DNA of 64,000 bases from Candidatus Zixiibacteriota bacterium (GCA_036481315.1 JAZGHS010000212.1:22363-86362); one strand, 5' to 3'; positions 14,269 to 52,413 are shown, numbered from the stretch's first letter. Translations and numbers: made by a program. Notes: generated by a model not told the origin, from the letters alone.

Positions 14269-14300
14269 AAACCGTAAGTCTTATTGACAGGGAGAATTAG

Positions 14301-15179
14301 ATGATATTCGAGAGTGTAAAAACCGGATTCGGACAAACGTGGGCAAATAAACGTTTGATTGCTGTTTTCTATCTGGTAAACCTGATTCTGGGACTAGCCA
14401 TTGCAATCCCGATAGCCGGCTTGGTGGATAGTTTCGTCGGCAAAAGTATGATCCGGGACAGCCTGGCCGCAGGTATGGATTGGAATTTTCTTTTCGAGTT
14501 TTTAGATATCAACCATAAACAGCTACCGGGAATGGGAAACCTGTTCTTTTTCATACCTCTGATATTCGTTTTATCGATCCTGTTCCTCTCTGGCGGCGCT
14601 ATAGGTGTTTTCGCCGGACACGAAAAATATAAACCATCGGAATTCTGGGGCAACTGTGGCCAATATTTCGGACGATTCTTCAGGTTGGCTTTGATGAGTA
14701 TCCCGTTACTGGCTATATTATTTTCAATCCGATTGCTCGCAGACGGTATCGAACGTTTGTTTTTCGGCGCCGATCCGTATGAAAACTTAGCTTACTGGTT
14801 CGGCGTGGCGAAAATCGGTCTGGGTATTATCGGCTTGTTGCTTTACGGTTTGGTTTTGGATTACGCTCGGATCTACATGGTCATAAACGATGAGATTAAA
14901 TCGCGAGTTGCCCTATGGCGCGGATTGAAATTCGCCGTTGGAAATATCGGCAGAACGTTTTCTCTGGCGTTGATCCTGTTTCTGACAGGATTGGCGGTAT
15001 TGTTTGTCTATTATCACCTATCGAACTTATTGTCGTCGTCCCACGTTGCAATCATCCTGTTGCTCGTGTTATTTCAGCAGATATATATCCTCTGGCGGGT
15101 GATATTGCGTCTGACATTCTACTCGGGGCAGGTGAATTTTTATAAACGGATCAACCCTGGAGACACTATCTACCGGTAA
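14301..15179 (+). CDS. polytopic membrane protein, unknown function
   Basis: About 6-7 hydrophobic helices; no recognisable motif. Confidence 0.4.
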   Translation: MIFESVKTGFGQTWANKRLIAVFYLVNLILGLAIAIPIAGLVDSFVGKSMIRDSLAAGMDWNFLFEFLDINHKQLPGMGNLFFFIPLIFVLSILFLSGGAIGVFAGHEKYKPSEFWGNCGQYFGRFFRLALMSIPLLAILFSIRLLADGIERLFFGADPYENLAYWFGVAKIGLGIIGLLLYGLVLDYARIYMVINDEIKSRVALWRGLKFAVGNIGRTFSLALILFLTGLAVLFVYYHLSNLLSSSHVAIILLLVLFQQIYILWRVILRLTFYSGQVNFYKRINPGDTIYR

Positions 15180-33056: not shown

Positions 33057-33079
33057 GGGGCCGAAATTAATTCGGCCCC
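33057..33079. terminator. hairpin between convergent genes; U-tract only on the minus strand
   Basis: GGGGCCGAA-ATTAA-TTCGGCCCC; minus-strand reading is followed by TATTTTTATT. Confidence 0.45.
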
Positions 33080-35614: not shown

Positions 35615-35648
35615 TCTCTTTCCTCCGAAGAATATATTACCTAAGATG

Positions 35649-37622: not shown

Positions 37623-37636
37623 ATCACTTCTCTAAC

Positions 37637-39451
37637 TTATATATCGATTTTCAAATTAAATCTGTTTATCGTCGCTTTCTTATCAAAGGGCGAATAAGCC
37701 TCGCCAGGTGTGAACATACCGAAAACCCATCCAATATGAACCCGATTCCAGAGTTTGGAAACTCCCAAAACGATATCCAAAGACGTTCCGATATCGTCGC
37801 TTACCCCGTTAGGGCGGGCAGGAGGATCAATCAGGTCCCCTCGCAAATCGGCCTCAGGCTGATCCTGTTTATAGACATGATAAACAACCTCGATCGAACC
37901 GTTATAAATCGGCTTGAATCCTACGCCAAAAGTAGTAATTATTAAATTGCTTAATTCCGGATCGAGAAGTTCGCCGTAATATTTGAATATCCGTACGCCT
38001 CCGAAATAACCGGTATTATCCTGAAAACCGGTCTGCCTGAATTCGTTATCGTCGGCACCAGTCTTTTCGCCGCTTCCACGGGCATATGCCACGGTAATCG
38101 ACGGCGAATAATTGACGTTTTCGGCTATGGCCGTTACTCCCAGATCCATTGCCGAAGCGCTCAATGATTTGCCTTTATCCGTACCTTTCATTATCACCAA
38201 TTCAGCCCAGGGGTTAAAATAATCTCCAACCTTGCCCATATAACCGGCGCCATACCATGATGGTTCCCGGTTGCGGGCTTGATCGCTGTCTTTTCTTACC
38301 AGAAGATACCCGCTTACAGTATTCTTATTGTTTACCTGCCAGCGAGCCCGGGCAAAAATATCCGACCAGGTCCTATATTTATTTTTTAGCTGAAAATCGG
38401 AATGAATATAAGCGAGCTCGTATATAACCGGCGCCTTGCCGTAATAATATAATCTCACCGCGTCGAGATACTCATCGAAAAGCCATTCCCGGGGATCTTC
38501 GATATCCTGCCGTCCCACCTGGACCGCAAAACCCTGCACACCTATATTTTTCGCCAGCACATAAAGCTGAGTGACTCGGCTCTCGAGCTTTTTCGACGGC
38601 GGATTGATCCTTTCGCTGTCTAAATAGATCCTCTCTCTTATACTGATCTGTCCAAAAGCGCGAAAAATATCGTTGAAATATCCGGCAAGTTCGGCCCTTA
38701 TCTCCGGCTGAGCATCCCTCTGATCATTTAGATAAAGATCGGATAGATCATATTCGGATTCGTTTTTTGCAGACTGACGGAAATTCCCGCTGATCAAAAA
38801 CTTATCCCCCGCGATAAATCCATAGTCGCTGTAATAAGCACGCGCCCAGGCCAATTCATCGAAAAGGTCCTCTTCAATTTTTTGAAACGAACTGCCCGGA
38901 TAGTTAACATCGGTCTTTCGATTCAGCAGAATTTTCAACCCGTGAATCTCCAAGGTGTCGGGAGGGTTACCGTCGACCGAAACTCCGGTCAGGGTGCCTT
39001 TGATTTTATTGCTCTTTTTGATATTCTTATGGTTGATTTTCCTGGCTTCCCAATTACCATCCTCCCTCACCTTACAGGTAACCTCCAGCCACTGACCTTC
39101 TTTGAGATCATTTATAGTCGTTAACCCGTCTCCAGAATCTGTGAATTGAGTTTTATCATCGATCTCGATCGATATCCCGTACATGGTGATAGTTTCTTTC
39201 TTCGAATCGACAATCTGCAAAATTCCCCGTAGTTTCGGCCGCCTCGGCTGAGGAAGCTCCTCTATATCGGAGGTTATAAACGCCCCCTGATCATTATCCC
39301 AATCGCCTTTTATCTCCACAGCCGGGATCTTCTCGAAATCGAGCCTCATGTATTCAGGCTCTCCTTCGGCCACGGCAATCTGAGATGAGAAAAGATACAA
39401 ACAAATCCCAAACAATAATCCGATTGTCACGATGGGCTGTTTTAAAGTCAT
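37637..39451 (-). CDS. putative outer-membrane beta-barrel (alginate-export/AlgE-like) with an N-terminal periplasmic domain
   Basis: Signal peptide. Alternating amphipathic beta-strand pattern with aromatic girdle residues. First gene of the glycan-locus tail. Confidence 0.35.
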   Translation of the reverse strand: MTLKQPIVTIGLLFGICLYLFSSQIAVAEGEPEYMRLDFEKIPAVEIKGDWDNDQGAFITSDIEELPQPRRPKLRGILQIVDSKKETITMYGISIEIDDKTQFTDSGDGLTTINDLKEGQWLEVTCKVREDGNWEARKINHKNIKKSNKIKGTLTGVSVDGNPPDTLEIHGLKILLNRKTDVNYPGSSFQKIEEDLFDELAWARAYYSDYGFIAGDKFLISGNFRQSAKNESEYDLSDLYLNDQRDAQPEIRAELAGYFNDIFRAFGQISIRERIYLDSERINPPSKKLESRVTQLYVLAKNIGVQGFAVQVGRQDIEDPREWLFDEYLDAVRLYYYGKAPVIYELAYIHSDFQLKNKYRTWSDIFARARWQVNNKNTVSGYLLVRKDSDQARNREPSWYGAGYMGKVGDYFNPWAELVIMKGTDKGKSLSASAMDLGVTAIAENVNYSPSITVAYARGSGEKTGADDNEFRQTGFQDNTGYFGGVRIFKYYGELLDPELSNLIITTFGVGFKPIYNGSIEVVYHVYKQDQPEADLRGDLIDPPARPNGVSDDIGTSLDIVLGVSKLWNRVHIGWVFGMFTPGEAYSPFDKKATINRFNLKIDI

Positions 39452-40758
39452 CTTTTTTCTCCGCTTAAAATGTTTTTCCCCTCTTGTGAACTATTTATTT
39501 CAAGTAATAGATTTTTCGCTATGCTTTTCCACCTGGGGCGAAGCGAATATAACCCCGCGAGACGTAATAGCGCCGCCGCCCTCCACCAATTCACCCGTTT
39601 TGTAAATTCTTTACCCGCCGATTCGTAGCCGCTCACAAACGCTTCCGATCCGTCTATGATCATCATCTCGTTCTCGGGCGATTGATACCGTCGTAAATCC
39701 AAATGTGCCATGAAATTCCCATAATCTAAAGCCGGGTCGGATAAGGCCATGTTATCGAAATCGAGCAGGGTTGCCCGACCGGGAGAATGAAGAGTCTGTT
39801 TGTCGTAAAAATCGCGATGAACGGGCCCGACCGCATAATCATCGCCGATTCTTCCCCGCGTAATCCCCGAGTAGGCGTCGCCGAACGCCTCACCAAGTTC
39901 GGGAAAGACACTATTTATAATATCGACTATTTTACTCAAACTGTCAAGCTCGTCGTCGGCTGTGTAATAGGGCAGATCGCCTAACGAAATCGAATGCAGT
40001 TTGCGAATCAATCGTCCCGCTTCATGGCAGGATTCGGGAAAAGATCGATTTCCGATTAACGAATGCAAAGACCGACCCGAAACGAATTCCATGAGTATAA
40101 TCCCGTGATCATTATCGCAACCCAGATACTCCGGTACAGTCAAACCATCGGATGAATCCGCGGTCATTTCGGTTGCGGAAAACTTTTCGAAGATTTTCAA
40201 AGCAGCCGCGATCTTTTTAGGACGTGCTATTTTGGCGACAACCTTGATTCTCTCGATACCGTCATTTTGTTTCATATCAAGTGTATATTCGAACACGCAT
40301 CGACGTTCAAGACGGTAGCCAAGCAAACGGCATTCGATCACATCGAACTTTTTTCCCGCGAGAAAGGGAATCGCCCCAAGACGTTTTTTAGGTTTACCCG
40401 TGACAACAAAATCGGGAAGATATTTGAGTTTAGGATCGTAAGGGAATACAGGGACGACCAAACCTATATCATCGAATATTATGAGGTCTTGCCGAGGCGC
40501 TAATGTTTTACCGGGCAGTGTCTGATCAAGCCCCAGCAAGTGACCCCATAATATAATTTTCTCTTCGCCTTTTTCCGTCTTGTCTATTATCAAATTGTAA
40601 CTGATAGAAAATCCACCGTCATTCCGAGGGAAAGCCCTGGGGATATACAGATATTTCAATTCCCCTTCTTTTCCCAAAAATCGATCGATCTCCTTTTGAA
40701 AACGGGATTTCATCCGATCGATATCTGTCGCGGCTTTAAAATTAGAAACTATTCCCAT
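39448..40758 (-). CDS. APH/choline-kinase-fold phosphotransferase (kinase B)
   Basis: Catalytic loop GPVHRDFYDKQ and a DFD metal-binding motif (LLDFDNM); paralog of the upstream gene. Confidence 0.55.
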   Translation of the reverse strand: MGIVSNFKAATDIDRMKSRFQKEIDRFLGKEGELKYLYIPRAFPRNDGGFSISYNLIIDKTEKGEEKIILWGHLLGLDQTLPGKTLAPRQDLIIFDDIGLVVPVFPYDPKLKYLPDFVVTGKPKKRLGAIPFLAGKKFDVIECRLLGYRLERRCVFEYTLDMKQNDGIERIKVVAKIARPKKIAAALKIFEKFSATEMTADSSDGLTVPEYLGCDNDHGIILMEFVSGRSLHSLIGNRSFPESCHEAGRLIRKLHSISLGDLPYYTADDELDSLSKIVDIINSVFPELGEAFGDAYSGITRGRIGDDYAVGPVHRDFYDKQTLHSPGRATLLDFDNMALSDPALDYGNFMAHLDLRRYQSPENEMMIIDGSEAFVSGYESAGKEFTKRVNWWRAAALLRLAGLYSLRPRWKSIAKNLLLEINSSQEGKNILSGEKR

Positions 40759-42119
40759 TACGACTCCAGGATCTTCTTACATTCGGCCAAAATCGTTGTT
40801 ATGCCTTCCTTCCAATTCGGCTCCAGCCTGCGAAACGGTCCCACAGCCAGTTGATAAAGCCCGAAGGCTATCCAGAAATTTAGATTCGACATCTCAATAT
40901 CTTTAATCTCTTTATACGTCTTCAAAAAGATCGTTTCTATATCTTTCTCGCCGTCAAGCTCGCCTCTTAAGCGCAACAGCTTTATGTGAGCCAGGAAGTT
41001 CCCTATGTCGAATACAGTATCGCCCCGATGGGATCGGTCGAAATCCAGTATCGATACTTTTCTTGTACGACATAATACCTGGCCGTAATAAAAATCGCCG
41101 TGAACAAAACCGGGTTTATCCGCCGCCAGAGAGTGATTTTTTAATTCATCGAAAATAGTATCGGCCAGTTTCGCCTCGATGGGAAGTATTTTTGTCAGCA
41201 TTCTGCGGGTTTCCTCGGCGTCATCGATATAACTTGCCCGAGATTTCTCGCTCAACCCAGGGATATCAAAACCATGCATTGCCGCCAGCGCGATTGCCGT
41301 CTTCGATATATTAGCCGCGCGGTTATCGCCCTCGATACTCTCTAAAAATTGTTTCCCCCGCGCTTTTTCCATAATCAACGCTTTTCTTTCGGGCAAGTAT
41401 GTCAATGGACGCGGCGAAGTGAACAAACCGGAATCTTCCGAGAGCTTATGAATCTTCTCTTGCAACGAAAACAGAGCCGCGCCCCGATCGTCAGCGTAAA
41501 CCCTTATATACAACTTTAGCCATACCCATTTGCTAGTTTCCCTGTTCTTCGCTCTCGCTCTGCAACGAAGCACAACACGTCGTTCCGGCTTATATCTGAC
41601 CGTACTCAGACTGATCTGTCTATTCGAAATACGCCATTTATCTTCCGGGTATTGGTCATAGTTCTCGTATAAAATCCTCTGGATCTTTTTAAGATCGGAC
41701 AGGATGCGAAGACCGTCGATTAAACAATCGTTCGGATAAAAATAAAGGATAGTGGCGTGCTCGGGAAGAGTTATGTACGGCTCCAAATCGGGAATCGGAA
41801 TCCAGCGCGATGATGCCGCCTTGCGCGTGGCGTTTTCATAATCATCCTCAGTATATAATTTAGCGTAAAATAATATCTCTTTGGGTTCGCCGTCCTTTTC
41901 TAACTGAAGCTGATAAGCAACAATACAATTTGTACCTGGTTTATATCTTATATAGAGAATACGACATTCCTTTACAACGCCCACGCTTTCAGGAAGCAGG
42001 TCGGCCAATATCGAGCCGACATTTTCCGGAACCAACAACACCGAAAGCCCCGGAAGGCTGTCATCGACCGGAATGTCGTCCCTTTTAATTTTATCCGCGT
42101 AACGTTCGCTTTTTAGCAC
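40758..42119 (-). CDS. APH/choline-kinase-fold phosphotransferase (kinase A)
   Basis: GFVHGDFYYGQ and ILDFDRS; 1-bp overlap with kinase B. Confidence 0.55.
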   Translation of the reverse strand: MLKSERYADKIKRDDIPVDDSLPGLSVLLVPENVGSILADLLPESVGVVKECRILYIRYKPGTNCIVAYQLQLEKDGEPKEILFYAKLYTEDDYENATRKAASSRWIPIPDLEPYITLPEHATILYFYPNDCLIDGLRILSDLKKIQRILYENYDQYPEDKWRISNRQISLSTVRYKPERRVVLRCRARAKNRETSKWVWLKLYIRVYADDRGAALFSLQEKIHKLSEDSGLFTSPRPLTYLPERKALIMEKARGKQFLESIEGDNRAANISKTAIALAAMHGFDIPGLSEKSRASYIDDAEETRRMLTKILPIEAKLADTIFDELKNHSLAADKPGFVHGDFYYGQVLCRTRKVSILDFDRSHRGDTVFDIGNFLAHIKLLRLRGELDGEKDIETIFLKTYKEIKDIEMSNLNFWIAFGLYQLAVGPFRRLEPNWKEGITTILAECKKILES

Positions 42120-42176
42120 TTTTAATATGCTCCCGGTTTCCTTTAGTGATTTTCTCCGCCGATGTATCGACCGGTT

Positions 42177-44039
42177 TCACTTATCCTCTAATTTTGCGTT
42201 CTTAGTTCCCTCTGGGATTTCTTCAGGAGGTTTAGCCGCCTCATTATCCAAATAATAATAAAACTCTCCTTTGCGCTTCAATAGTTCCTCGACGGTGCCC
42301 TGCTCGATTAGACGTCCGTCCTCGATATAAGCCGCCCAATCGGCAAGCTCCAGAAAATTCAATCTGTGTGTTATTATCAATAATGTCCGTCCCGGTTTCA
42401 ACGCTCTCAACGCCTCTATGGCTCCCTTCTCGGAGTGAATATCGAGGCCGGTGGCCGGCTCGTCGAAAATCATAATAGGAGAATTTTTCAACGCCGCCCG
42501 GGCGAAACTTATCCTCTGACGCTGTCCACCGGATAAAGTATCGCCGCCCTCGCCCACCAACGTCTCATATCCTTCCGAAAACTTCTCGATGAAACCATCG
42601 GCGCCCACAAGACGAGCGGCCTCTTCGATCTCCTCCCTGGTTGCCCCCGATTTACCGAAAGATATATTCTCCTCGATTGTCGTACGAAATAAAAAAGAAT
42701 CCTGGGTCAAGCTGGTAACCCGTTTACGAAGAGATCGGATTCTATATTCGCCGATATCACGCTTATCGATATATATCGCCCCCGCCTGTGCTTCGTACAA
42801 TCGAAGTAAAAGCTTGGCGATTGTGGATTTTCCGGCCCCAGTCGAGCCGATCAAGACCGTGGTCTTGCCCGCCGGGATAAACAGATTCATCCCTTTAAGC
42901 ACTTCGTTGCCGTCGATATAAGAAAAATATACGTCTTCGAATTTAATATTGCCTTTTATTCTCTTAGCCGATTTCGCGCCGGGATGATCCTCGACCTCAG
43001 GATGGATATCCAGTATCTCCATAATCTTCTCGCCGCGTACTATCGCTTTCGATGTCCGAGCCGAAAGGCTGGCAACCGTGCGTATAGGACGATATATACC
43101 GCGAAGATATGTAACGAAAATAATCAGATCGCCCGGCGAAATATTTCCCTCTAACGCTTTATGCGCCCCGATCAATAATACTATTCCGGTACCAACCGCG
43201 GTTACAATCTCAACCACCCTGGCGTAATTGGCGGCGAGTTTTGTGGTTCTGAGATTGGCCCTGAAATCGCTCGAAATCGATTTGCCTATCAACTTTTCCC
43301 GGATCTTTTCCTGGGCGAATGCTTTCACCTGGCTTATCCCCGAGATCGATTCCTCCATGGAGGCCACCATCTTGCCATACTTTTCGCGTTGACGATTGGC
43401 CGCGCTTTTTATTCTCCCTGTAAACTTAAAGGCGGCGATTACGAATAATGGCATAACCGCTAGAATCAATAGCGCTAATTGCCAGTCTAAAAAGAAAGCT
43501 ACCGAAAGCATCCCGAATATGAGAACAAATTGACCCACCAGGCGAATCAGGGTCTCTACCATCAAATCCTGCAAGAGGTTTATATCGCCGGTAAGCCTGG
43601 TGATGATTTCTCCGGTCTCACTGTAATCGTGATATGATTGCGGTAACCGTTGTACATGAGAGAAAAGCTGAAGCCGTATGGCGGCCAGTACCGCATGGCC
43701 TACCGTCTTGGCCCAGACGCTTTGAGCGTACTCGAGCGAACTGCTTATCAGGGCCATGGAAAGAATCGACCCGGCGGCGAGGAAAATCACGGTCATCGGA
43801 TCCCAACCCTTCAGGGGATTTAAAAACGAGATATCCGATGCTCGATCCGGCATTAACGCATAATCAAAAATAATTTTCAACGGCCACGGACGCAGAAGGG
43901 TCATTGCCGACATACCCAGTAACGCGAACGTGCTTAAGATCAGCTTGCCCTTGTGTGGTTTCAGATGCACGGCAAAATGGGATATCACCCTTCGTAATGA
44001 GCCAAAATCGATTTTAGCAAGTCCGTATTTTATTTTCAT
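42177..44039 (-). CDS. ABC exporter, fused TMD-NBD (MsbA-like lipid/glycolipid flippase type)
   Basis: 6 TM helices; Walker A GSTGAGKST; signature LSGGQRQRISFARA; Walker B IMIFDE. Confidence 0.8.
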   Translation of the reverse strand: MKIKYGLAKIDFGSLRRVISHFAVHLKPHKGKLILSTFALLGMSAMTLLRPWPLKIIFDYALMPDRASDISFLNPLKGWDPMTVIFLAAGSILSMALISSSLEYAQSVWAKTVGHAVLAAIRLQLFSHVQRLPQSYHDYSETGEIITRLTGDINLLQDLMVETLIRLVGQFVLIFGMLSVAFFLDWQLALLILAVMPLFVIAAFKFTGRIKSAANRQREKYGKMVASMEESISGISQVKAFAQEKIREKLIGKSISSDFRANLRTTKLAANYARVVEIVTAVGTGIVLLIGAHKALEGNISPGDLIIFVTYLRGIYRPIRTVASLSARTSKAIVRGEKIMEILDIHPEVEDHPGAKSAKRIKGNIKFEDVYFSYIDGNEVLKGMNLFIPAGKTTVLIGSTGAGKSTIAKLLLRLYEAQAGAIYIDKRDIGEYRIRSLRKRVTSLTQDSFLFRTTIEENISFGKSGATREEIEEAARLVGADGFIEKFSEGYETLVGEGGDTLSGGQRQRISFARAALKNSPIMIFDEPATGLDIHSEKGAIEALRALKPGRTLLIITHRLNFLELADWAAYIEDGRLIEQGTVEELLKRKGEFYYYLDNEAAKPPEEIPEGTKNAKLEDK

Positions 44040-45298
44040 AGTTTACCCGATTCGGTTTTCGCTCCGGCCATCAGGTCTTCAAAAATACGGCTGACCGTTT
44101 TCAATCGGCTATTCCAGGTATGCTTAGCAACAGCCTCGATCCTGGCGTTTTCTCCGAGTTTTTTTCTCAAACCCGGATCGTTTTTAAGCCTTAAAAGGGC
44201 GTCCCGCAACGCCACGGCATCTCCAGGAGGAACAAGGAGGGCGGTTTGTTCGTGAACCAGTATTTCCTCTATCTGCCCTATCGACGATGCCACTATCGCT
44301 TTCCCGGCCGCCATATATTCGAAAATCTTCAACGCCGAAAAATAAAAATCGTTCAGATCGGGATAAGGAGCAACTAAAACATCAGCCATTTCCAGAAAAG
44401 CGGGTATCGTTTCATGTTCAACGGAGCCGGTGAATTTCACCCGACCCTTCAACCCGAGTTCGCGGCACTTCTGTTTTAATTCTGATTTCAGTTTTCCCTT
44501 GCCACCTACCACAAGAAGCCTGTCTTTAATTTCGTTTTTTGATAGATCCGCGAAAGAGTCGATCAGGATCTCCACACCGTGCCAGGGTTTGAGACTGCCC
44601 ACAAAACCGACCACAAAATCGGATTTGTCGAACCGATCGAATGAAAGATCTATATCTTTCAAGCCGTCTGAATTCGTAAATTGCTCCACCGTTACACCGT
44701 TTGGAATAACCGATACCGCAGCCCCTGGCGCGACACTCTTAATATACCCGGCGACCTCGTCGGAAACGGATATTATATGATCCGCATCCTCGAAAAGATG
44801 TTGTGCTACCGATATGGCCAGATCCTTCTGCGCTAACCCCCGATATTCCGCGGCTTCCACAACCAGAGGAGCGTTGACTTCTAGAGTAAATGGAAGTCCG
44901 TTCGCCCGAGCAAATTTTAATCCCGCCTGGCAAAATAACGAGTATCGTTCGTATATAAGATCAAAATTGCTCTGCGAATGAAGCATCGATATAAAAGTCT
45001 CGACAGCGTTATTATGGTCAAATAAATTCATCTCCGCTGATATTTTATTATCTACAGTAGCGGCCGCCGAATTCTCCCCCGCCACGCTATCCGGCAGAGG
45101 GGGAAGATCGAAATACAAAACCGAGTTATACTGATGGCCATTGGCATCGGCGCCCCGGGCGACAACCGTAATATCATACCCCTGCTTTTGGAGATTGCTC
45201 ACAAATTCCCGCATATGAATAGAACCGCCCTTGGTGCCCCAGTAAGGAATACCGGTATCGGCGCAGAGGTAGAGTATTTTTCTTTTCGATTCACTCAT
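44036..45298 (-). CDS. GT4-family glycosyltransferase
   Basis: N-terminal ILYLCADTGIPYWGTKGGS; C-terminal EYMAAGKAIVASSIG (the E-x7-E region). 4-bp overlap with the ABC gene. Confidence 0.75.
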   Translation of the reverse strand: MSESKRKILYLCADTGIPYWGTKGGSIHMREFVSNLQKQGYDITVVARGADANGHQYNSVLYFDLPPLPDSVAGENSAAATVDNKISAEMNLFDHNNAVETFISMLHSQSNFDLIYERYSLFCQAGLKFARANGLPFTLEVNAPLVVEAAEYRGLAQKDLAISVAQHLFEDADHIISVSDEVAGYIKSVAPGAAVSVIPNGVTVEQFTNSDGLKDIDLSFDRFDKSDFVVGFVGSLKPWHGVEILIDSFADLSKNEIKDRLLVVGGKGKLKSELKQKCRELGLKGRVKFTGSVEHETIPAFLEMADVLVAPYPDLNDFYFSALKIFEYMAAGKAIVASSIGQIEEILVHEQTALLVPPGDAVALRDALLRLKNDPGLRKKLGENARIEAVAKHTWNSRLKTVSRIFEDLMAGAKTESGKL

Positions 45299-45319
45299 AT
45301 TATCTCTCGATTTCCATTC

Positions 45320-46576
45320 TTAGCCAGTAACCTGCGACAGGTCCCTTTTTTCAAGATAATGCCCGATCATCGTTTCTATGTTTTGCTTAAGATCGAATTT
45401 ATCTTGTGCTTTCTTGCGTCCCGCCAAGGAAAATCGGGCCTGAAGTTCTCTCGACGATAAAATTCGCTCGATCCACTCGGTTAATTTTATCGGATTGTCC
45501 GGTTCCACCAAAGCCCCGTTGATCTCATGATCAACCATCTCCGGCACGCCGGATATGGTCGTGGAGATTACAGGCAGACCTAAAGCGAGCGCTTCTATGA
45601 TGACCGTGGGCAAGGCGTCCTGGTTACCGTCGTTATCGACCGTGCAGGGCAGGCAAAACAGAGTCGCCCTACGCATAAGATCGAGAACCTCGTCCAACGT
45701 CTTCGCTCCGGTAAATTCGACATCGTCATCGGTCAACCCCAGTTCCGTTTTTTTATTATGAAGATTTTCCCATTCGGAACCGTCGCCGACTATAAGACAT
45801 TTAAAATCAACGCCTTTGTCTTTTAAAAGCCTGCAAGCGTCGAGAAGAGTCCCGAATCCCTTCTTAGGTACCAGCCGACCGACTCCCAATATCAGGCTTT
45901 CCTCCCGACCCCTGGTTTCCACGGGCGTAAATTCATCAAGATCGATACCATTGTGGATTACCTTTATCACGGACGGGTCTATATGGGGTGCGTTTTCGGT
46001 TAGATATTTATAGTTATAATTAGTTACGGTCACGACAAATTTTGCCGCGGCGAGTTTCTCGGCCAGAAGATGCTCTTTCATATCGTAAACGAAAATATCC
46101 TTGGCGTGAGCGGTGAAGCTGAAAGGGATGCCGGATATCAAATGCGCGTAATAAGCCATCGTACTCGGCTGACTGGCGAAATGAGCGTGAAAATGCGAAA
46201 TCCCCATCTCGATCCCCCTGGCCGCGATCCAGGCCGCGTGGAGAACCATCTCGATTTTATGATTGTTTTTCTCGGCCAGGCCCTGCTCGAGTAACGGCCA
46301 GAACCTATCTGCTCGAGGCGCGAGATACTCCCAAAGTTCGCCCAGCCACGTTCCCCACTTTTTAACGTCGAATCCCTCGAGATAATAAGCCCTGGCTTTC
46401 AAATAGGCGACCTGTGGATGAAATATCCCTTCGTTCGGTTTCTTAAGTGAAAATATAGATATCCGCGCGCCGCGACGTTCGAGTTCGAGCATTTCATTTA
46501 AGATAAACGTTTCCGAAATTCGCGGATACATCTTTACTATATAGCCGAGTTTTAAGTCTATTCCCTCTTCTAACAT
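45320..46576 (-). CDS. GT4-family glycosyltransferase
   Basis: GT-B fold; C-terminal EALALGLPVISTTISGVPEMV. Confidence 0.7.
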   Translation of the reverse strand: MLEEGIDLKLGYIVKMYPRISETFILNEMLELERRGARISIFSLKKPNEGIFHPQVAYLKARAYYLEGFDVKKWGTWLGELWEYLAPRADRFWPLLEQGLAEKNNHKIEMVLHAAWIAARGIEMGISHFHAHFASQPSTMAYYAHLISGIPFSFTAHAKDIFVYDMKEHLLAEKLAAAKFVVTVTNYNYKYLTENAPHIDPSVIKVIHNGIDLDEFTPVETRGREESLILGVGRLVPKKGFGTLLDACRLLKDKGVDFKCLIVGDGSEWENLHNKKTELGLTDDDVEFTGAKTLDEVLDLMRRATLFCLPCTVDNDGNQDALPTVIIEALALGLPVISTTISGVPEMVDHEINGALVEPDNPIKLTEWIERILSSRELQARFSLAGRKKAQDKFDLKQNIETMIGHYLEKRDLSQVTG

Positions 46577-47847
46577 ACAGCTTTCTCTTTCGTTTTTTCA
46601 ATTTCAGCCAGAGATTCTCCTATATATCGCGCCAATCGACTCGCACCGTCAAGCCACAGAAGATTGTCGGCGCGCGCTTCTGCCAGCTTTTCGTCCGGCT
46701 CGGATAATCTCTCCTCGATAGCCTGACCGAGCGATTCAGGTGTTAAATCGTCCGGATGTATAAACCTAATAAGTCCCAGATCTCCAAACCTCTGTGCCCG
46801 GATAAGCTGTTCTTTCCTGTATAATATTCGGGGCACAACTACGGCCTGAGACGCGAAGCTCAAAATATCGGTCATGGTGTTGTATCCGCCCGTGGAGATT
46901 ACCAAGGCGCTTCGTTTCATCAAAGACCCGGGGTCCGAAACATATCTGAAAATACTTGCCCCAACCTCTTCCGCTTGCTTTTGAAAGGCCTCCCATTTCT
47001 CCTGTGATAAAAACGGGCCTGTCAGTATCACGCTTTTATGATCGCTTCTATTCTTCTTACGACGTAATACCTTTAAAAAATCATCGATCACCGTCTCGCC
47101 GCCGTCGCCGCCGCCGATCGTGACCAGCACCAACTTCTCCTGGGCCTCTTCCGGCTCGTTTGAAATAGACCCGTCATTATTATAGGTAGTGATAAATCCG
47201 CAATATCGGGTCTTGAACGCGATATCGTCGGGAAAATCATATTCGGCCACAGGATCGAAAATCGTCGGCATTCCATATATAAATATCCGATTATAAAGAT
47301 TGCGTATTATTTCGAAGATCCCCTGTTTGGTCCAACTTTCTATTGTACTCGATGGGCTGTCCAGGATATCCCTAAGCCCTAAAATAGCCCGCGATTTATC
47401 ATTGTTCGCGGCGATCCATTCCAGGCAGGGAACAATCTCCCTTTTCATCCCCAACGGAGCGTGATCGACAAGGAGAATATGAGGCTCGTAGTTCCTGACC
47501 GTTTCGAGCAATACACTCCTGCGAACCGCCAATATCCTTTTGAAGGTGATTCCAAGATATCTGGCCGCGTAACCCTCATCGTTTACCTTGTGCACCGAAG
47601 GTAACTTGATATAATCGGTACCGTCGGGAATAGTAAACTGATGAGCCTGCGGTGAACCGGTGGCGATTAAGACCGAAAGTTCGGGATAGGCGGCTTTAAG
47701 AGCCGAGGCTATTTTAAGATTCCTGCTCAAATGCCCCAAGCCAAAAGTATCATGAGAATATAACATAACCCGAAAACCGATGCCAACACCGTTGTATAGC
47801 GGTCTCTGTGTCTCGACCGATCGGGTATTTTCTCTTAACCTATCCAA
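46570..47847 (-). CDS. GT-B glycosyltransferase of the MurG/MGT-like (GT28/COG4671-type) family
   Basis: N-terminal MLYSHDTFGLGHLSRNLKIA, a Gly-rich UDP-sugar loop typical of GT28/GT1. Confidence 0.5.
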   Translation of the reverse strand: MDRLRENTRSVETQRPLYNGVGIGFRVMLYSHDTFGLGHLSRNLKIASALKAAYPELSVLIATGSPQAHQFTIPDGTDYIKLPSVHKVNDEGYAARYLGITFKRILAVRRSVLLETVRNYEPHILLVDHAPLGMKREIVPCLEWIAANNDKSRAILGLRDILDSPSSTIESWTKQGIFEIIRNLYNRIFIYGMPTIFDPVAEYDFPDDIAFKTRYCGFITTYNNDGSISNEPEEAQEKLVLVTIGGGDGGETVIDDFLKVLRRKKNRSDHKSVILTGPFLSQEKWEAFQKQAEEVGASIFRYVSDPGSLMKRSALVISTGGYNTMTDILSFASQAVVVPRILYRKEQLIRAQRFGDLGLIRFIHPDDLTPESLGQAIEERLSEPDEKLAEARADNLLWLDGASRLARYIGESLAEIEKTKEKAVC

Positions 47848-47862
47848 AAAGACCTCGGTTTT

Positions 47863-49263
47863 TTATATTTGCCCTATGCTCCGATATTCGAACCCGTAGC
47901 GGCGGATTAATTCCGGAGAGAGTATATTGCGAGCGTCGACAATCTTCTTATGCCTCATAATTTCCCCGGCTTTCTTCCAATCGAATAATTGAAATTCCGA
48001 CCATTCGGTTAATATAACGGCACAATCGACACCATCTAAAGCGTCATACGATGTTTCCGTCACATCAAGATCGGGCAACTGACGTTTGGCATCGACGCCG
48101 GCGGCGGGATCGTAAGCTTTAACGATAAAACCGTTATCCAGAAGCTTCCGCGCTATGGCCATGGCCGGAGAATCACGTAAATCGCTGGTCTCCGCTTTGA
48201 ACGAAAGCCCGAGAATTCCAATTCTCTTCTTTTCGATATCGGTTGTCAGATCCTTGATCTTGGATACCACAAAATCGTGTTGTATAATATTTGCTTTTTT
48301 TACCGCTTCTAATATCAACAAAGGGATACCACGGGAATTACCCAGTCCGGTAAATTCCTGCAGATCCTTGGGAAGGCACGACCCGCCCCACCCGGGACCG
48401 GGGTTTAAAAACTCCGAGCCGATTCTGGAATCCATGCCCATCGCCCGGGCAACCTCTAATACGTCGATACCAACATTATCACAAAGCATTGCCAGCTCGT
48501 TGATAAACCCGATCTTGGTGGCCAGAAAAGCGTTCGACGCGTATTTTATCATCTCGGCCGTCTCATTATTGGTCACTATGGTCGGTGACGGTTTAACCGC
48601 GCCCATCCTGTAAATATGCTGAATGGTATCGATGGCCTCCGATGAATCACCTCCTATTACAATCCGATGGGGATTGAAAAAATCGTAAACCGCGGTCCCC
48701 TCCCGCAAAAACTCGGGGTTACTTATAATCGCTATTTCGCCGTTTTCGCAACCGTTACGCTTCAAAATCTGTTTTAGCTCGGCAGCGGTTCCTATCGGAA
48801 CGGTGCTCCTGATCACCACCACCTGCCCCGGCTTGAGAACCTTACCCAGATTATCAACTATTCCGTAAATAGCGCTTAAATCTGCCCTACCGCTATCGTC
48901 CGACGGTGTGCCTACCGCGATAAACGCTGCCTTCTGTCCCGCAAGAGAATTCTCCAGATCCGACGAGAACGAAAGTCGTCCGCTCTTCACGTTGCTCTTT
49001 ATCAACTCCTCCAGATCTCGCTCAAAAAATGGTAGCCGCCCCTCCTTCAACATAGCCAGTTTGTCGGCGTCCTTCTCCACGCAAACCACATTATGCCCGA
49101 ATTTCGCGAGACCTGCGGCCGTAACACAACCGACGAACCCGGCGCCAATAACGCAAATGTTCACACCGGTCAAAGGCCCGGATAAAGGGGCCGCCGTTTC
49201 GGAAAACTCCTCGGTACGGATATGTGTCGCGTCATTAGATCGTTCATCATCCATCGCCAACAC
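47863..49263 (-). CDS. ugd: NAD-dependent nucleotide-sugar 6-dehydrogenase (UDP-glucose 6-dehydrogenase family)
   Basis: Rossmann motif ICVIGAGFVGCVTAAGLA; catalytic Cys GGSCLPKD. Confidence 0.8.
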   Translation of the reverse strand: MLAMDDERSNDATHIRTEEFSETAAPLSGPLTGVNICVIGAGFVGCVTAAGLAKFGHNVVCVEKDADKLAMLKEGRLPFFERDLEELIKSNVKSGRLSFSSDLENSLAGQKAAFIAVGTPSDDSGRADLSAIYGIVDNLGKVLKPGQVVVIRSTVPIGTAAELKQILKRNGCENGEIAIISNPEFLREGTAVYDFFNPHRIVIGGDSSEAIDTIQHIYRMGAVKPSPTIVTNNETAEMIKYASNAFLATKIGFINELAMLCDNVGIDVLEVARAMGMDSRIGSEFLNPGPGWGGSCLPKDLQEFTGLGNSRGIPLLILEAVKKANIIQHDFVVSKIKDLTTDIEKKRIGILGLSFKAETSDLRDSPAMAIARKLLDNGFIVKAYDPAAGVDAKRQLPDLDVTETSYDALDGVDCAVILTEWSEFQLFDWKKAGEIMRHKKIVDARNILSPELIRRYGFEYRSIGQI

Positions 49264-49527
49264 CTTTCTTTACAATGACGCCCAAAACGTCTCTATTATT
49301 CGAACCTCTATTTATCTCTAGAATCATGCTGCCAATCACCCTGGAGTCGAATTCAGAGTCAAATTAACAAGACAACAATTTAAATCAAGTCTTTTAATTA
49401 AACAAATAGTATGCCAAAAAATAGACTAATTTAACCTATTGCCAATAACAAGTTTATAAAAATCAACGTTTTGAAAATAGTAGTCAACACTAATTAAGTA
49501 TTGTTTATATAAACCAATTGGTTCTTT

Positions 49528-50925
49528 TTAACCGATAATCTTCGTTAATTTCGATATTGAGTGTTTAGTAATTCTATAACGTAGTGCCTCTCTACCAATT
49601 TTCAATTTACGGGCGGCCTCGCTGACATTACCGCCGGAAGATATCAACGCCTGCAGTATTACTTCTTTTTCGATAGATTCAAAATCGATACCTTCTTCAG
49701 GAAAATCGACTCTAATTTTCCCATCATTACTCAACGAAAATGTAGATTTTTCACTTTGAGGGATATTCAGGTCGATCGCCCCTATAGTCGAGCCGCCGGT
49801 AAGAAATATCACCCGTTCGATTAACTGCCTTAATTCCCTCACGTTGCCCGGCCAGTTGTACTCGGTCAGCGCGATGTTGGCGTCGTCGCTTAATTTCTTT
49901 TCCACTCCGTATTTGCGGCAGAATCGTCCCAGAAAATTCACGGCCAGATCAACTATATCCTCTATTCTCTCTCTTAAGGGAGGAACCCGCAAAACGAAAT
50001 TATTGAGCCTGTGGTAGAGATCTTCACGGAAAGCTCTTTTATCTCTCAGATCGCGATTGGTAGCGGCGATCACCCGGACATCAACATCAATATCTCTTAA
50101 CCCGCCGACGTGTCTTATGCTTTTATTCTCAATCGCCTGTAAAAGTTTGACTTGCGCCTCGAGGTTTAAATCGCCGACTTCATTTAGGAAAATCGTCCCC
50201 CCCTCGGCGGTCTCGAAAAGGCCCCGTTTCGATCTGTGGGCGCCGGTAAAAGCTCCTTTTTCGTGGCCGAAAAGTTCCGCCTCCTCCAATCCTTTGGGAA
50301 GACTCGAGCAATTGACCTCGACAAACGGTTTTGAAGAGAGTTTACCTCTGTAGTGGATAATTCTGGCAATCAGGTCTTTGCCGGTTCCGGTTTCGCCGAG
50401 GATTAATACCGGTGGGAACTCCGACGGGGAAGGTAGACTCATGTCCAGAAGTTTATCAATTATCTCCGATACCTCCCGCATCCTGGAGGAGTTGGTGATC
50501 AGCCGATCCTCATCGGTCTTTTCTACTTCTCGGCTATGATAGTATGCGACCTCCTGCTTCAGCCTGGCGTCGGTTAACGCTCTCTCCACCGCGAGGGCAA
50601 GCTCTTCGGTATCCAGCGGTTTACGCAGAAAATCACTGGCCCCGGAACGCATGGCCTCAACCGCCGAGGCCATAGTGCCGAACGCCGTAACCACTATGAC
50701 CGCGGTATCGGGGTCTCGTTGACGGATTTTTTTCATTGCTTCGAAACCGGAAATCCCCGGAAGTTGAAGGTCGACCAGCACAACGTCAGCCGGAAGCTGT
50801 TCGAGCATTTTGAGGCCGTCCTCCGCCGACGCCGCTATCAGGCATTCATGTCCTTTGCCCATAAGAGATCGGGCTAACGATTTCGCCAGTAAAACTTCGT
50901 CTTCTATTATTAAAATCTGAGCCAT
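49528..50925 (-). CDS. sigma54-dependent NtrC-family response regulator (REC-AAA+-HTH)
   Basis: REC domain with DLQLPG; AAA+ motif GETGTGKDLIARIIH; GAFTGA sigma54 contact loop; C-terminal HTH. Confidence 0.85.
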   Translation of the reverse strand: MAQILIIEDEVLLAKSLARSLMGKGHECLIAASAEDGLKMLEQLPADVVLVDLQLPGISGFEAMKKIRQRDPDTAVIVVTAFGTMASAVEAMRSGASDFLRKPLDTEELALAVERALTDARLKQEVAYYHSREVEKTDEDRLITNSSRMREVSEIIDKLLDMSLPSPSEFPPVLILGETGTGKDLIARIIHYRGKLSSKPFVEVNCSSLPKGLEEAELFGHEKGAFTGAHRSKRGLFETAEGGTIFLNEVGDLNLEAQVKLLQAIENKSIRHVGGLRDIDVDVRVIAATNRDLRDKRAFREDLYHRLNNFVLRVPPLRERIEDIVDLAVNFLGRFCRKYGVEKKLSDDANIALTEYNWPGNVRELRQLIERVIFLTGGSTIGAIDLNIPQSEKSTFSLSNDGKIRVDFPEEGIDFESIEKEVILQALISSGGNVSEAARKLKIGREALRYRITKHSISKLTKIIG

Positions 50926-50943
50926 TGCAAATCTACTCTCCGC

Positions 50944-52413
50944 TTACTCCCTTTTATCGTTTGTTGATTTTCGCAACGGCAGTAAAATTTCCACGGTCGT
51001 GCCCTTTCCCGGTTCGCTTTCGAGATTGATTCGTCCTTGGTGAATATCGATAATTCTTTTCGCCTGCGCCAGCCCTAAACCGGTCCCTTTAGCTTTGCTC
51101 GATTCGAATATCTTAAATAGCCTCGGTTTGATATGATTGGGAACGCCGATTCCGTTATCGGTGATTATTATACTAACGCTTTCTCCGTCAGAAAGATTCT
51201 GGTACGCGGTTTTCAGAGAAATCCGGCCGTCATCCGAAATCGCCTGAAATGCGTTGGTGACTATTACCACGATGGCTTGCTCCAATAAAATGCTGTCGAC
51301 CTCGATAGGGGGGATATTTTCCGCAAGGCGCCAGTCAAGTTTGGTGGAGGAGGTCTCGAGCGTTTTCGAGGCGATAGATACCGCTTCGGTCAAGAGCTCA
51401 TTTATATCACGTTTTTCCGGAATATAATCCAGCGGTTTTGCGAACTGCAGAAGACCTTTGAGCCAGCCGTCGAGCCTATCCACTGTCTTGATTATATCAT
51501 CAAGCGATTCCACTGCCGAATCCGGCAAAGAGTCCGTGTCGCTTAATAAAACCTGCACCGCGGCTCTGATACCGGAAAGGGGATTTCGTATATTGTGCGC
51601 GGCGTAAGCCGAGATTTCCCCTATAGCCGCCAAACGTTCATGATCGCTTAGTTTTTGAAGAGTTGATTTAAGCGAGTCGGCCATATCGCCGATAGCGTCG
51701 GCAACCTGCGCCCACTCGTCGTTTCCCTTCAAATCGATTCTGATATCGAGATTACCGTCGCTGATAGATTTTGTAGCATCGTTGACAAGCGCGATAGGTT
51801 TAACCAGCCAGCGTTGTAAAAAGAAGGCTAGTATTATAAACAAAACAATGGCGACAATAGACGTGGTAATAATAATTCCCACAGCCAGCCCGCCGGCGTC
51901 GGTGGCCGCTTTCAGCCATAAATCCTCCTGGGAATAATAATACCTGCTCAGAGCGGTAACGTCCCCGGCCACCTCGTCGGCCATCTCTCTAAGCCTTTCT
52001 CTGGCTTGAACAAAATTCTCTCCGGAAAGGGGTTTGGAGTCGTTTGCGAAAAAACGGTCCATTATCCAAGTGAGTTCGTATTGCGTTTCCTCGAAACCCT
52101 CGATGAAATAGGTTTCATTCTCGGCCAGAGAGTCCGTTTTCAACCGATCGATCAAGGAGGCGGATTCTCTTTGAGTCTCCTCAAACCTCTCCCGGGCGAC
52201 CGAATCGCCGTAGAGATAATCGAGTGCGAAATTTACCTGCAGGAATATATTCGAGCGAAGCCTTTCGGCCACCGCGCTTTTGGAATGTGTCTCGATCAGC
52301 CTGTCCGCGGCGTTACTCCAGCCGGAGACGGCTGATATCGAAATGGCGGAGGCCGCCAGAAAGGCGGCGATAATTAAGCCATAATAAAACAGAAGCTTGG
52401 AACGAATTTTCAT
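50944..52413 (-). CDS. membrane sensor histidine kinase (periplasmic sensor, HAMP, HisKA, HATPase)
   Basis: Two TM helices flank a roughly 150-aa periplasmic domain. H-box AHNIRNPL; G-boxes GIGVP ... GTGLGL. Confidence 0.75.
   Translation of the reverse strand: MKIRSKLLFYYGLIIAAFLAASAISISAVSGWSNAADRLIETHSKSAVAERLRSNIFLQVNFALDYLYGDSVARERFEETQRESASLIDRLKTDSLAENETYFIEGFEETQYELTWIMDRFFANDSKPLSGENFVQARERLREMADEVAGDVTALSRYYYSQEDLWLKAATDAGGLAVGIIITTSIVAIVLFIILAFFLQRWLVKPIALVNDATKSISDGNLDIRIDLKGNDEWAQVADAIGDMADSLKSTLQKLSDHERLAAIGEISAYAAHNIRNPLSGIRAAVQVLLSDTDSLPDSAVESLDDIIKTVDRLDGWLKGLLQFAKPLDYIPEKRDINELLTEAVSIASKTLETSSTKLDWRLAENIPPIEVDSILLEQAIVVIVTNAFQAISDDGRISLKTAYQNLSDGESVSIIITDNGIGVPNHIKPRLFKIFESSKAKGTGLGLAQAKRIIDIHQGRINLESEPGKGTTVEILLPLRKSTNDKRE

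Follow-up and report, generated by a model that had tools for sequence, protein, structure and literature searches.

Gene content of the kinase locus

The window analysed here is a 64,000-nucleotide stretch from a Candidatus Zixiibacteriota bacterium (GCA_036481315.1 JAZGHS010000212.1:22363-86362), in which two adjacent kinase genes, here named K1 and K2, lie among genes for glycan synthesis and export (Table 1). The two ORFs were located exactly as an earlier note on this DNA had claimed, overlapping by 1 bp (TAATG), a base common to the stop (TAA) of K1 and the start (ATG) of K2. The junction sequence is ...GGAGTCGTAATGGGA, with a GGAG 6 nt upstream, and the overlap is consistent with translational coupling. 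The downstream end of K2 shares 4 bp (ATGA) with the next gene, which encodes an outer-membrane protein. An NCBI Zixibacteria MAG carries exact copies of K1 and K2, and homologues elsewhere number in the hundreds, indicating that these are real genes and not chance ORFs.

Both proteins match the Pfam APH family (PF01636), with 43.4 bits for K1 and 32.7 bits for K2 against a gathering cut-off of 23.2, and both have the bilobal kinase fold. Their assignment to the APH/choline-kinase fold, with H-x-D and DFD motifs, was therefore borne out, as was their placement in a glycan operon with an adjacent ABC exporter, which profile matches confirmed. The best NCBIfam matches of the exporter were MsbA (385 bits), HepA (333) and a glucan exporter (320), none of which reached its equivalog cut-off. 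Among the glycosyltransferases, GT4a matched EPS_EpsE of NCBIfam over its full length (193 bits, below cut-off), and the GT28-like enzyme had weak PDB sequence matches to OleD, YjiC and MurG. The accessory dehydrogenase, judged by its domains, would supply a uronic acid donor.

Table 1. Features of the kinase locus, with positions counted from the first nucleotide of the window
Feature	Position	Strand	Evidence
Two large secreted beta-sandwich repeat proteins, 657 and 832 aa	33116..37622	-	CarboxypepD_reg, Big_1, PKD and T9SS-type C-terminal domains
Intrinsic-terminator-like hairpin, 9 pairs, 7 of them G-C, then a T-run	33057..33079	-	Consensus scan only
Outer-membrane protein, DUF5666 and AlgE-like Alginate_exp barrel	37637..39451	-	Pfam Alginate_exp 88.7 bits, DUF5666 34.7 bits
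K2 kinase, HRD clade, 436 aa, with its own N-terminal cap	39448..40758	-	ORF, ATG start
K2 catalytic loop H314-R-D316...Q321 and metal loop D333-F-D335	39754..39819	-	Translation HRDFYDKQTLHSPGRATLLDFD
K1 kinase, HGD clade, 453 aa	40758..42119	-	ORF, GTG start; Pfam APH
K1 catalytic loop H340-G-D342...Q347 and metal loop D359-F-D361	41037..41102	-	Translation HGDFYYGQVLCRTRKVSILDFD
MsbA/NdvA-like half-size ABC exporter (TMD and NBD), immediately upstream of K1	42177..44039	-	Pfam ABC_membrane and ABC_tran
GT4 glycosyltransferase (GT4b)	44036..45298	-	Pfam Glycos_transf_1 and Glyco_transf_4; conserved cassette position
GT4 glycosyltransferase (GT4a)	45320..46576	-	Pfam Glycos_transf_1; conserved cassette position
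GT28-C/GT1-like glycosyltransferase, first gene of the core	46570..47847	-	Pfam Glyco_tran_28_C 50.4 bits; conserved position
UDP-glucose/GDP-mannose dehydrogenase family, accessory	47863..49263	-	All three UDPG_MGDP_dh Pfam domains
Sigma-54-dependent response regulator and HAMP histidine kinase	49528..52413	-	Pfam

Conservation of the catalytic residues

The catalytic and metal-binding motifs read HGDFYYGQ...DFD in K1 and HRDFYDKQ...DFD in K2, and the HxD triad, the N/Q at +5 and the DFx metal loop are invariant in both family alignments. The invariant residues in the 55-sequence K1 alignment are K177, P178, E179, R181, H340, G341, D342, Q347, D359, D361 and D371, so that the catalytic H340, D342, Q347, D359 and D361 are kept in 55/55 family members. 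In the K2 family alignment H314, D316, Q321 and D333 are kept in 37/37, and the strand-beta3 K176 is a lysine in 34/37. When the comparison was extended across phyla, both clades kept D359/D333, D361/D335 and D371 at 99-100%; the motif by which the domains were chosen had already fixed the H, D and Q/N columns, which are not independent evidence here. Q occupies the metal-binding position, replaced by N in a few members, as a functional site would lead one to expect. All the catalytic residues that were free to vary in this test were retained in both paralogue clades, and both active sites look functional by these sequence criteria. The conserved C-terminal motifs of K1 and K2 are PFRRLExxW and YSLRPRW.

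Both clades have either K or R at the beta3 position, where a lysine binds ATP phosphates. In K1, where it was assigned by sequence alignment to K2, it is Arg206, with R in 51/55 close relatives and K in 35/65 sequences clade-wide. A beta3 Lys to Arg change usually weakens the activity of protein kinases, and the arginine in this K1 counts against the reading of two working active sites proposed below.

Ancient paralogues and natural fusions

K1 and K2 share 22% identity over 288 aa (BLAST, E=3e-12). Only the kinase cores align, from residue 176 in K1 and residue 148 in K2, showing that the N-terminal ~150 residues are truly divergent, as the earlier note had said of the N-terminal lobes. A recent duplication of the pair was not supported. 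K1, which falls in clade 1 of an NJ tree, resembles the N-terminal half of Chloroflexota fusion proteins more closely than it does its neighbour K2, and aligns with the N-half of the fusion protein P0094 at 28% identity over 433 aa (E=6e-35). K1 and K2 are thus two ancient clades with a fixed gene order, K2 always coming after K1 in the loci compared.

K1-K2 fusion proteins of about 770-830 aa occur in many phyla, and some lineages have three kinase domains. Two single ORFs, L076 (1400 aa) and P0297 (1404 aa), join the exporter to both kinases, which lie at its C-terminus. These two proteins are only 45% identical over 1395 residues, indicating that the ABC-K1-K2 fusion has been maintained and is not an assembly error. 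The family comprises 3301 clusters at 50% identity (E<=1e-30), with relatives in at least 303 species-level genomes.

A conserved six-gene cassette

The kinases belong to a cassette with the order GT28-like, GT4, GT4, MsbA-like ABC exporter, K1 and K2. Of the 59 loci with enough flanking sequence, 52 have the GT28-GT4-GT4-ABC series immediately ahead of K1, and the cassette is spread over about a dozen bacterial phyla (by locus labels) and Ca. Methanoperedens, where the bare six-gene unit is flanked by unrelated genes. With this order kept across phyla, the common K1-K2 fusions and the ABC-K1-K2 fusions, the link of the kinases to the glycan genes and the exporter is much stronger than the earlier note could tell. 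The cassette is strongly conserved and apparently undescribed.

Accessory genes vary among lineages. An AlgE-type porin gene follows K2 in 37 loci, in diderm lineages; no such gene was detected among the loci of Chloroflexota, Actinobacteria or Methanoperedens. UDP-glucose dehydrogenase genes, for uronic-acid supply, were found in 21 loci at varied positions. Sulfotransferase genes lie within or adjoining the cassette in 9 loci, in 4 of them exactly between the ABC gene and K1. Together, the sulfotransferases, the uronic-acid supply and the AlgE-type porin suggest a theme of anionic decoration.

Similarity to maltokinase and glucosamine kinase

The architecture and motif spacing of K1 and K2 match the maltokinase/glucosamine-kinase branch. 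Mycobacterial maltokinase (Mak/Pep2) and actinobacterial glucosamine kinase (GlcNK) have a similar size, of about 440-455 aa, and the same succession of an N-terminal cap, an intermediate beta-sheet subdomain and a helical C-lobe. K1 consists of such a cap and an APH-type core; the cap is also present in this K2 and is missing from K2-type proteins in most other phyla. In Mak and GlcNK, as in K1 and K2, the cap is composed of an N-terminal helix, three long antiparallel strands round that helix and a short two-stranded sheet. The DSSP assignments of the K2 model (H3-28, E33-44, E50-60, E64-74, E92-95, E100-103) and of a K1-type half agree with the published Mak/GlcNK descriptions in cap topology, as compared by secondary structure. 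The top Foldseek match in the PDB for a K1-type fusion model was maltokinase 4u94 (E=2.2e-10, 497 alignment columns), covering the full length of the 451-residue target; a K1 profile reached a PDB maltokinase only at E=1.8e-5 over about 90 residues.

The active sites share the HxD motif, a Mg-binding Gln at Asp+5 and DF(D/E) 12 residues past the Gln, with equal Asp/Gln/Asp spacing in K1 (D342/Q347/D359), K2 (D316/Q321/D333), Mak (D305/Q310/D322) and GlcNK (D300/Q305/D317). However, sequence identity to these enzymes is only about 12%, and the sugar-binding D-x-H of the Mak/GlcNK catalytic loop is D-F-Y in both K1 and K2. The helix alpha12 motif Q-x2-RE-x2-YA-x3-LP-x-W, or its Mak equivalents, is not matched either, and neither protein matched Pfam Mak_N_cap or NCBIfam maltokinase at E<=0.01.

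Comparison with other kinase systems

WaaP and KdkA phosphorylate sugars in envelope glycan synthesis and have a protein-kinase-like fold, as K1 and K2 do. The earlier note had compared the pair with them, and this comparison failed: K1 and K2 do not belong to Pfam Kdo (PF06293), and WaaP and KdkA are not their closest structural relatives. The RiPP kinase model LxmK scored 46.5, far below its NCBIfam cut-off of 315. APH-family resistance enzymes and RiPP kinases lack the extra N-terminal cap that K1 and K2 carry, and no antibiotic or RiPP genes were found at the locus. Among PADLOC defence models no match was obtained for K1, K2 or the three glycosyltransferases, and the ABC protein had only generic ATPase matches.

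A functional precedent is offered by WbdD of E. coli O9a and Klebsiella O3, which phosphorylates the glycan end in ABC-dependent O-antigen assembly (PMC3482155), and by ORF6 of Klebsiella O7, a glycan-end kinase with an AmiN-like kinase domain (PMC11231755), which is of the APH fold like K1 and K2. In all these systems a cytoplasmic kinase is encoded with glycosyltransferases and an ABC exporter. WbdD and O7 ORF6 are chain terminators that phosphorylate the glycan before export, WbdD-type enzymes acting on its non-reducing end and stopping elongation; phosphorylation before export is proposed for K1 and K2 as well. The systems also differ. WbdD has a methyltransferase partner and a coiled-coil ruler, which K1 and K2 lack (Pfam found no methyltransferase domain in either kinase or in the neighbouring proteins), and WbdD-type systems export through Wzm/Wzt, whereas the exporter here is an MsbA-type half transporter. 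WbdD and O7 ORF6 have one kinase domain, in contrast to the two or three of the K1/K2 cassette. Sequence similarity of K1 and K2 to these kinases was undetectable, and WbdD was absent from the PDB profile matches at E<=1.

A candidate kinase module on the exporter

Since these ancient paralogues always travel with three glycosyltransferases and an ABC exporter, K1 and K2 most likely phosphorylate the sugar chain just before export. We give about even chances to a specific form of this reading, in which a kinase module with two active sites, docked on the exporter, phosphorylates the glycan before it is exported. K1 and K2 would be the halves of one conserved cytoplasmic module, each with its own working active site, situated at the cytoplasmic end of the MsbA/NdvA-like exporter. 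The GT28-like and the two GT4 enzymes would build the sugar chain, with uronic acid provided through the dehydrogenase in this genome. The module would then use ATP to phosphorylate this chain, probably at two different positions, just before or during its hand-over to the exporter. The resulting product, presumably anionic, would cross the inner membrane through the ABC exporter; in diderms, this Zixibacterium among them, the AlgE-like porin would then take it across the outer membrane. Since the cassette has no priming phosphoglycosyltransferase, this product could be a soluble oligosaccharide, a polymer or a glycolipid. The two distinct phosphorylations suggested by the earlier note would fit the retention of freely varying catalytic residues in both clades and the three domains of some lineages. 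Where K1 and K2 are separate proteins we infer that they bind each other and the exporter, and the glycan of the cassette is their presumed substrate. When a natural K1-K2 fusion was modelled with AlphaFold2, the halves had no confident packing (pTM 0.58) and were joined by a disordered linker, which counts against this reading, as do the sugar-binding residues that differ from those of Mak and GlcNK.

The kinases could instead act at the start of the pathway, phosphorylating a lipid or other membrane acceptor on which the glycosyltransferases then build. Such a role would suit the absence from the cassette of a priming phosphoglycosyltransferase or other obvious primer-making enzyme, the tether to a membrane ABC protein, and the resemblance of the first glycosyltransferase to GT1/GT28 enzymes using lipophilic acceptors; APH-fold kinases of lipophilic substrates exist, and 25-hydroxysteroid kinase was among the top structural matches. 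However, the kinase genes come after the exporter and not ahead of the glycosyltransferases, their slot is shared by sulfotransferases, which add further anionic decoration, and two or three conserved active sites are hard to square with a single priming step, so we regard this role as unlikely. Also improbable, in our judgement, is a regulatory module of protein kinases or ATP sensors that would switch the exporter or the glycosyltransferases and leave the product unmodified, a role compatible with the fusion to the nucleotide-binding end of the exporter, with the Arg at the beta3 Lys position of K1 in this lineage, and with the lack of a fixed arrangement of the halves in the AlphaFold2 model.

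The likeness to maltokinase raises a role in precursor supply, with K1 and K2 as anomeric sugar-1-kinases, like maltokinase, NahK and AmgK, whose sugar-1-phosphates feed the glycosyltransferases. This is quite unlikely, given that the cassette has no conserved nucleotidyltransferase to convert sugar-1-phosphates to donors, that the maltose and glucosamine binding residues are missing, and that such a role gives no obvious reason for a fusion to the exporter. The alternative of the earlier note, resistance or self-resistance by inactivation of an aminoglycoside-like compound, is hardly credible despite the Pfam APH membership and the many resistance kinases among the structural neighbours: the NCBIfam APH(3') model (APH_3p) gave 23.6 bits against a cut-off of 205, other resistance models were not close, a fixed synteny ties the kinases to glycosyltransferases and an exporter across phyla, and the cassette carries no genes for aminosugar or cyclitol biosynthesis.

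If the kinase-module reading is right, it would give a function to a large, widespread set of genes that now bear no annotation beyond "phosphotransferase", and it would open to testing an envelope or exopolymer pathway that is common in little-studied phyla (Zixibacteria, Acidobacteriota, Chloroflexota, Planctomycetota, Nitrospirota and others). The natural ABC-kinase-kinase fusions offer a single-chain structural target for modification-export coupling, and the six-gene unit is compact enough for transplant into a model host. A bolder proposal, possible yet doubtful, is that this unit constitutes an unrecognised, self-contained and horizontally mobile pathway that makes and exports a phosphorylated glycan, with a multi-kinase module in the export machine, where phosphorylation by kinases docked on or fused to the nucleotide-binding end of the exporter licenses or terminates the transport substrate. 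Such a pathway, found in thousands of protein clusters across bacteria and in at least one archaeon, would couple glycan modification to ABC export in a new way.

Lineage-specific flanking genes

The genes at both ends of the locus are lineage-specific. The sigma-54-dependent regulator and histidine kinase are found upstream in 19-22 loci, and the repeat proteins form an operon tail that is present downstream in 21 loci, mostly from Zixibacteria and related loci. The hairpin located after the last repeat-protein gene likely marks the end of the operon.

A pair of paralogous kinase genes in a glycan operon

The two adjacent kinase genes, K1 (453 aa) and K2 (436 aa), lie where the earlier note had placed them, and the 1-bp overlap it described is present, one base being common to the stop codon of K1 and the start codon of K2 (TAATG). 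K1 starts with GTG and K2 with ATG, a GGAG sequence is found six bases 5' of the stop-start junction, and K2 overlaps the next gene, which encodes the porin, by ATGA. The proposed membership of the APH family also held, since both proteins score above the Pfam curated cut-off, and the claimed motifs were found as HGDFYYGQ...DFD in K1 and HRDFYDKQ...DFD in K2. The two are indeed paralogous but distant, with 22% identity over 288 aa (E=3e-12) in an alignment confined to the kinase cores. Identical copies of both are on record in an NCBI 'candidate division Zixibacteria' MAG.

All genes of the operon, spanning 33116-52413 of the window, are on the minus strand. Its ABC exporter scored 320 bits against the NCBIfam glucan-exporter model, which is below the cut-off. 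The 264-bp gap between the response regulator and dehydrogenase genes contains a sigma-54 -24/-12-like site in the right orientation; such matches occur at chance level across the window (16 vs 14.5 expected).

Coordinates of the operon, its surroundings and selected features of homologous loci
Sequence	Feature	Position	Strand	Remark
Window	HAMP histidine kinase	50944-52413	-	First in listed gene order
Window	Sigma-54 response regulator	49528-50925	-	
Window	Sigma-54 promoter-like site	49401-49416	-	TGGCAT-N5-TTGT
Window	UDP-glucose dehydrogenase family enzyme	47863-49263	-	
Window	GT28-C-like glycosyltransferase	46570-47847	-	
Window	GT4 glycosyltransferase	45320-46576	-	
Window	GT4 glycosyltransferase	44036-45298	-	
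Window	MsbA-like ABC exporter	42177-44039	-	Followed by K1 and K2
Window	Kinase K1	40758-42119	-	
Window	Kinase K2	39448-40758	-	
Window	Outer-membrane protein (porin)	37637-39451	-	DUF5666 and AlgE-type Alginate_exp barrel
Window	Two large CarboxypepD_reg/PKD repeat proteins	33116-37622	-	657 and 832 aa; also Big_1 domains
Window	Strong terminator-like hairpin	33057-33079		After last operon gene
Window	Amidase-family enzyme	31381-33051	+	Beside operon
Window	958-aa protein	28362-31238	+	Beside operon
L001	Alkaline-phosphatase-family gene	1810-3039	-	Just 5' of cassette
L001	Sulfotransferase	8867-9997		
L044	Sulfotransferase	8838-9983		
L077	Sulfotransferase	8864-9946		
L080	Sulfotransferase	8609-9625		
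L004	Separate DUF5666 and Alginate_exp genes	12825-14510		247 and 309 aa, adjacent
L047	Six-gene archaeal unit	4520-12273		
L076	ABC-K1-K2 fusion	8138-12340		Single 1400-aa ORF

A kinase family with maltokinase-like architecture

Single-sequence searches returned no significant PDB matches to K1 or K2, and the family profiles matched only generic APH-fold enzymes, namely the ACAD11 kinase domain, corramycin kinase, MTR kinase, APHs and maltokinase (E=1.8e-5). The top Foldseek match of the model of a K1-type protein was maltokinase 4u94 (E=2.2e-10), aligned along its full length. The K2 model begins with a helix, three long antiparallel strands and a short two-stranded sheet, all ahead of the core, and the K1-type half of the modelled homologue P0094 is arranged in the same way. 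This segment is the N-terminal cap known from the maltokinase of mycobacteria (PMC4306142) and from glucosamine kinase (PMC6520443). Both enzymes bind Mg through a Gln at position +5 from the catalytic Asp and, a further twelve residues on, through the leading Asp of DF(D/E) (PMC4306142, PMC6520443), a spacing matched exactly by K1 (D342, Q347, D359) and K2 (D316, Q321, D333).

The pair is nevertheless best treated as a new family within the APH superfamily, and not as maltokinases, because identity between the K1-type model and 4u94 is only ~12%, the sugar-contacting D-x-H of maltokinase and glucosamine kinase is replaced by D-F-Y, other conserved, Arg-rich motifs (PFRRLExxW in K1, YSLRPRW in K2) take the place of the sugar motif on helix alpha12, and the Pfam and NCBIfam maltokinase models do not match either protein.

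A Lys on strand beta3 normally binds ATP in kinases. By alignment, this position is Arg206 in K1, with R in 51/55 of K1 and its close relatives, vs the usual Lys in K2 (K176). The pattern is reversed in the beta1-beta2 hairpin, where K1 has an invariant Lys177 (RYKPERR) and K2 has R149.

K1 and K2 form one module

Homologue searches found hundreds of relatives for each kinase, frequently on contigs of the same length, and many proteins of 750-830 aa. In long proteins of the type of P0094, the N-terminal half matches K1 (28% identity over 433 aa, E=6e-35) and the C-terminal half matches the K2 family profile (hhalign E=1.7e-45), so that the 750-830 aa homologues are fusions of a K1-type and a K2-type kinase. 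BLAST E-values of K2 were similar for both halves of the fusions, so that its correspondence to the C-terminal half did not emerge from BLAST alone and was settled by profile-profile comparison and by the tree. Eight fusion C-terminal halves scored slightly higher as K1 with the Zixibacteria-derived K2 HMM, but their HRD motif and tree position place them with K2.

By HMM classification of 84 loci, K1 and K2 are separate consecutive genes, in that order, in about 44 and a single fused gene in about 24. The arrangement K1-K1-K2 occurs in a few Zixibacteria (L013, L014, L020, L031), and two or three APH domains are present in some of the library proteins of 907-1057 aa (P0269, P0326); the number of kinase modules therefore varies from two to three.

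A neighbour-joining tree of 135 kinase cores, a simple distance tree, split at the midpoint into a clade of first-position kinases with HGD, including the K1 of the window, and a clade of second-position kinases, mostly with HRD, including K2. The duplication is therefore ancient, and gene order has remained unchanged. The DFD aspartates and D371 are conserved at 99-100% in both clades, and the beta3 position is K or R. The H, D and Q/N columns of this test were preselected by the motif used to pick domains and are not independent evidence, but these catalytic residues are also invariant in independent family alignments.

Outside Zixibacteria-like lineages the K2-type part is without its own cap. 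AlphaFold2 modelled the domains of P0094, a natural K1-K2 fusion, with confidence, but a pTM of 0.58 and a disordered linker give no basis for claiming an interface between the halves.

Fusion to the exporter

In locus L076 one ORF without an internal stop codon spans the ABC exporter, K1 and K2, and the representative library contains a second such protein (P0297, 1404 aa), in which Pfam recognises ABC_membrane, ABC_tran and a pair of APH domains. Identity between these fusions is just 45% across 1395 residues, so the architecture has been maintained in evolution, in at least two diverged lineages, and is not an artefact of assembly. The kinases of the triple fusion are cytoplasmic, since they come after the nucleotide-binding domain.

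A compact cassette spread over many phyla

With each GTDB species represented by a single genome, a scan detected K1 relatives in 303 stretches. The best 80 of these belong to MAGs whose records name them as Zixibacteria, Ignavibacteria, Krumholzibacteria, Acidobacteriota, Chloroflexota, Planctomycetota (including Scalindua), Myxococcota, Nitrospirota, Gemmatimonadota, Actinobacteria, Trueperaceae, one cyanobacterium and the archaeon Ca. Methanoperedens nitroreducens. Clustered at 50% identity, the family amounts to 3301 clusters if E<=1e-30 is required and to 9590 if E<=1e-10 is allowed.

Upstream sequence of 6.5 kb or more was available for 59 loci, and in 52 of them tblastn with the proteins of the window found GT28-like, GT4, GT4 and ABC genes directly 5' of K1, in that order; four further loci from protein look-ups showed the same order. 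Genes in the retrieved loci were called approximately, as longest ORFs, and the two GT4 genes were labelled GT4a or GT4b by best tblastn match. Clustering of all ORFs in the retrieved loci recovered kinases in 77 loci, the ABC exporter in 73, GT4 in 69, the GT28-like enzyme in 60, the AlgE-like porin in 37, the response regulator in 22, UDP-glucose dehydrogenase and the repeat proteins in 21 each, the histidine kinase in 19 and a sulfotransferase in nine. This clustering showed no conserved phosphoglycosyltransferase, Wzx/Wzy, nucleotidyltransferase or methyltransferase in the cassette. The porin was not detected by tblastn in the Chloroflexota, Actinobacteria and Methanoperedens loci.

In Ca. 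Methanoperedens nitroreducens (L047) the unit consists of exactly six genes, GT28-like, GT4, GT4, ABC, K1 and K2. It has an H+-pyrophosphatase gene and unrelated genes on its flanks and looks like a horizontally acquired, self-contained module. The nine loci with sulfotransferase genes within or beside the cassette belong to several phyla, suggesting sulfated variants of its product. In four of them (L001, L044, L077, L080) the gene is exactly between ABC and K1; the others are L045, L051, L054, L062 and L066. The alkaline-phosphatase-family gene was seen in one locus only.

Proposed function and precedents

The kinases thus have two conserved active sites in a fixed K1-K2 partnership, with an equally fixed link to three glycosyltransferases and an MsbA/NdvA-type exporter to which they are occasionally covalently fused. 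Accessory genes supply or add anionic groups (uronic acid, sulfate), and an alginate-type porin is present in many, mostly diderm, lineages. MsbA-like exporters such as NdvA/ChvA can carry soluble glucans. We infer that K1-K2 could be a two-site kinase docked on the ABC exporter; acting on the cytoplasmic side, it would phosphorylate the glycan product of the three glycosyltransferases prior to export. To this proposal we give about an even chance.

Other roles for the pair were considered. It could act as a priming or lipid kinase, which seems unlikely, or it could regulate the exporter, as a kinase or an ATP sensor, which we hold to be equally unlikely. The supply of sugar-1-phosphate is a distinctly unlikely role, and antibiotic resistance, which the earlier note had raised, is highly improbable. 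A conflict-system reading was dropped because PADLOC returned no defence-system match to the kinases.

For phosphorylation before export, there are precedents in ABC-dependent assembly, where glycan-phosphorylating kinases are known from WbdD (PMC3482155) and from the AmiN-like kinase of the Klebsiella O7 terminator (PMC11231755). Unlike the cassette, these systems combine a coiled coil and a methyltransferase with export through Wzm/Wzt. Neither the fold nor the principle of pairing a glycan kinase with a neighbouring ABC exporter is new. Three things do appear to be new: a maltokinase-like module that is paired or fused, the joining of this module to the exporter, and a compact cassette found in many phyla. 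Source annotations are generic ('phosphotransferase', 'RdoA', 'Bud32'), and the full-text literature searched held no description of the cassette, the kinase pair or a similar kinase/GT/ABC/AlgE combination.

Some further features of the porin side of the operon were observed. The DUF5666 and barrel domains form one protein in the window and are encoded by separate genes in L004. The 657-aa repeat protein has a T9SS-type C-terminal sorting domain and the 832-aa protein a Cys-rich dockerin-like tail, and 21 loci, for the most part Zixibacteria and related loci, conserve this secreted pair on the downstream side of the porin gene. A T9SS C-terminal sorting domain is also the sole Pfam match of the 958-aa protein encoded on the opposite strand.
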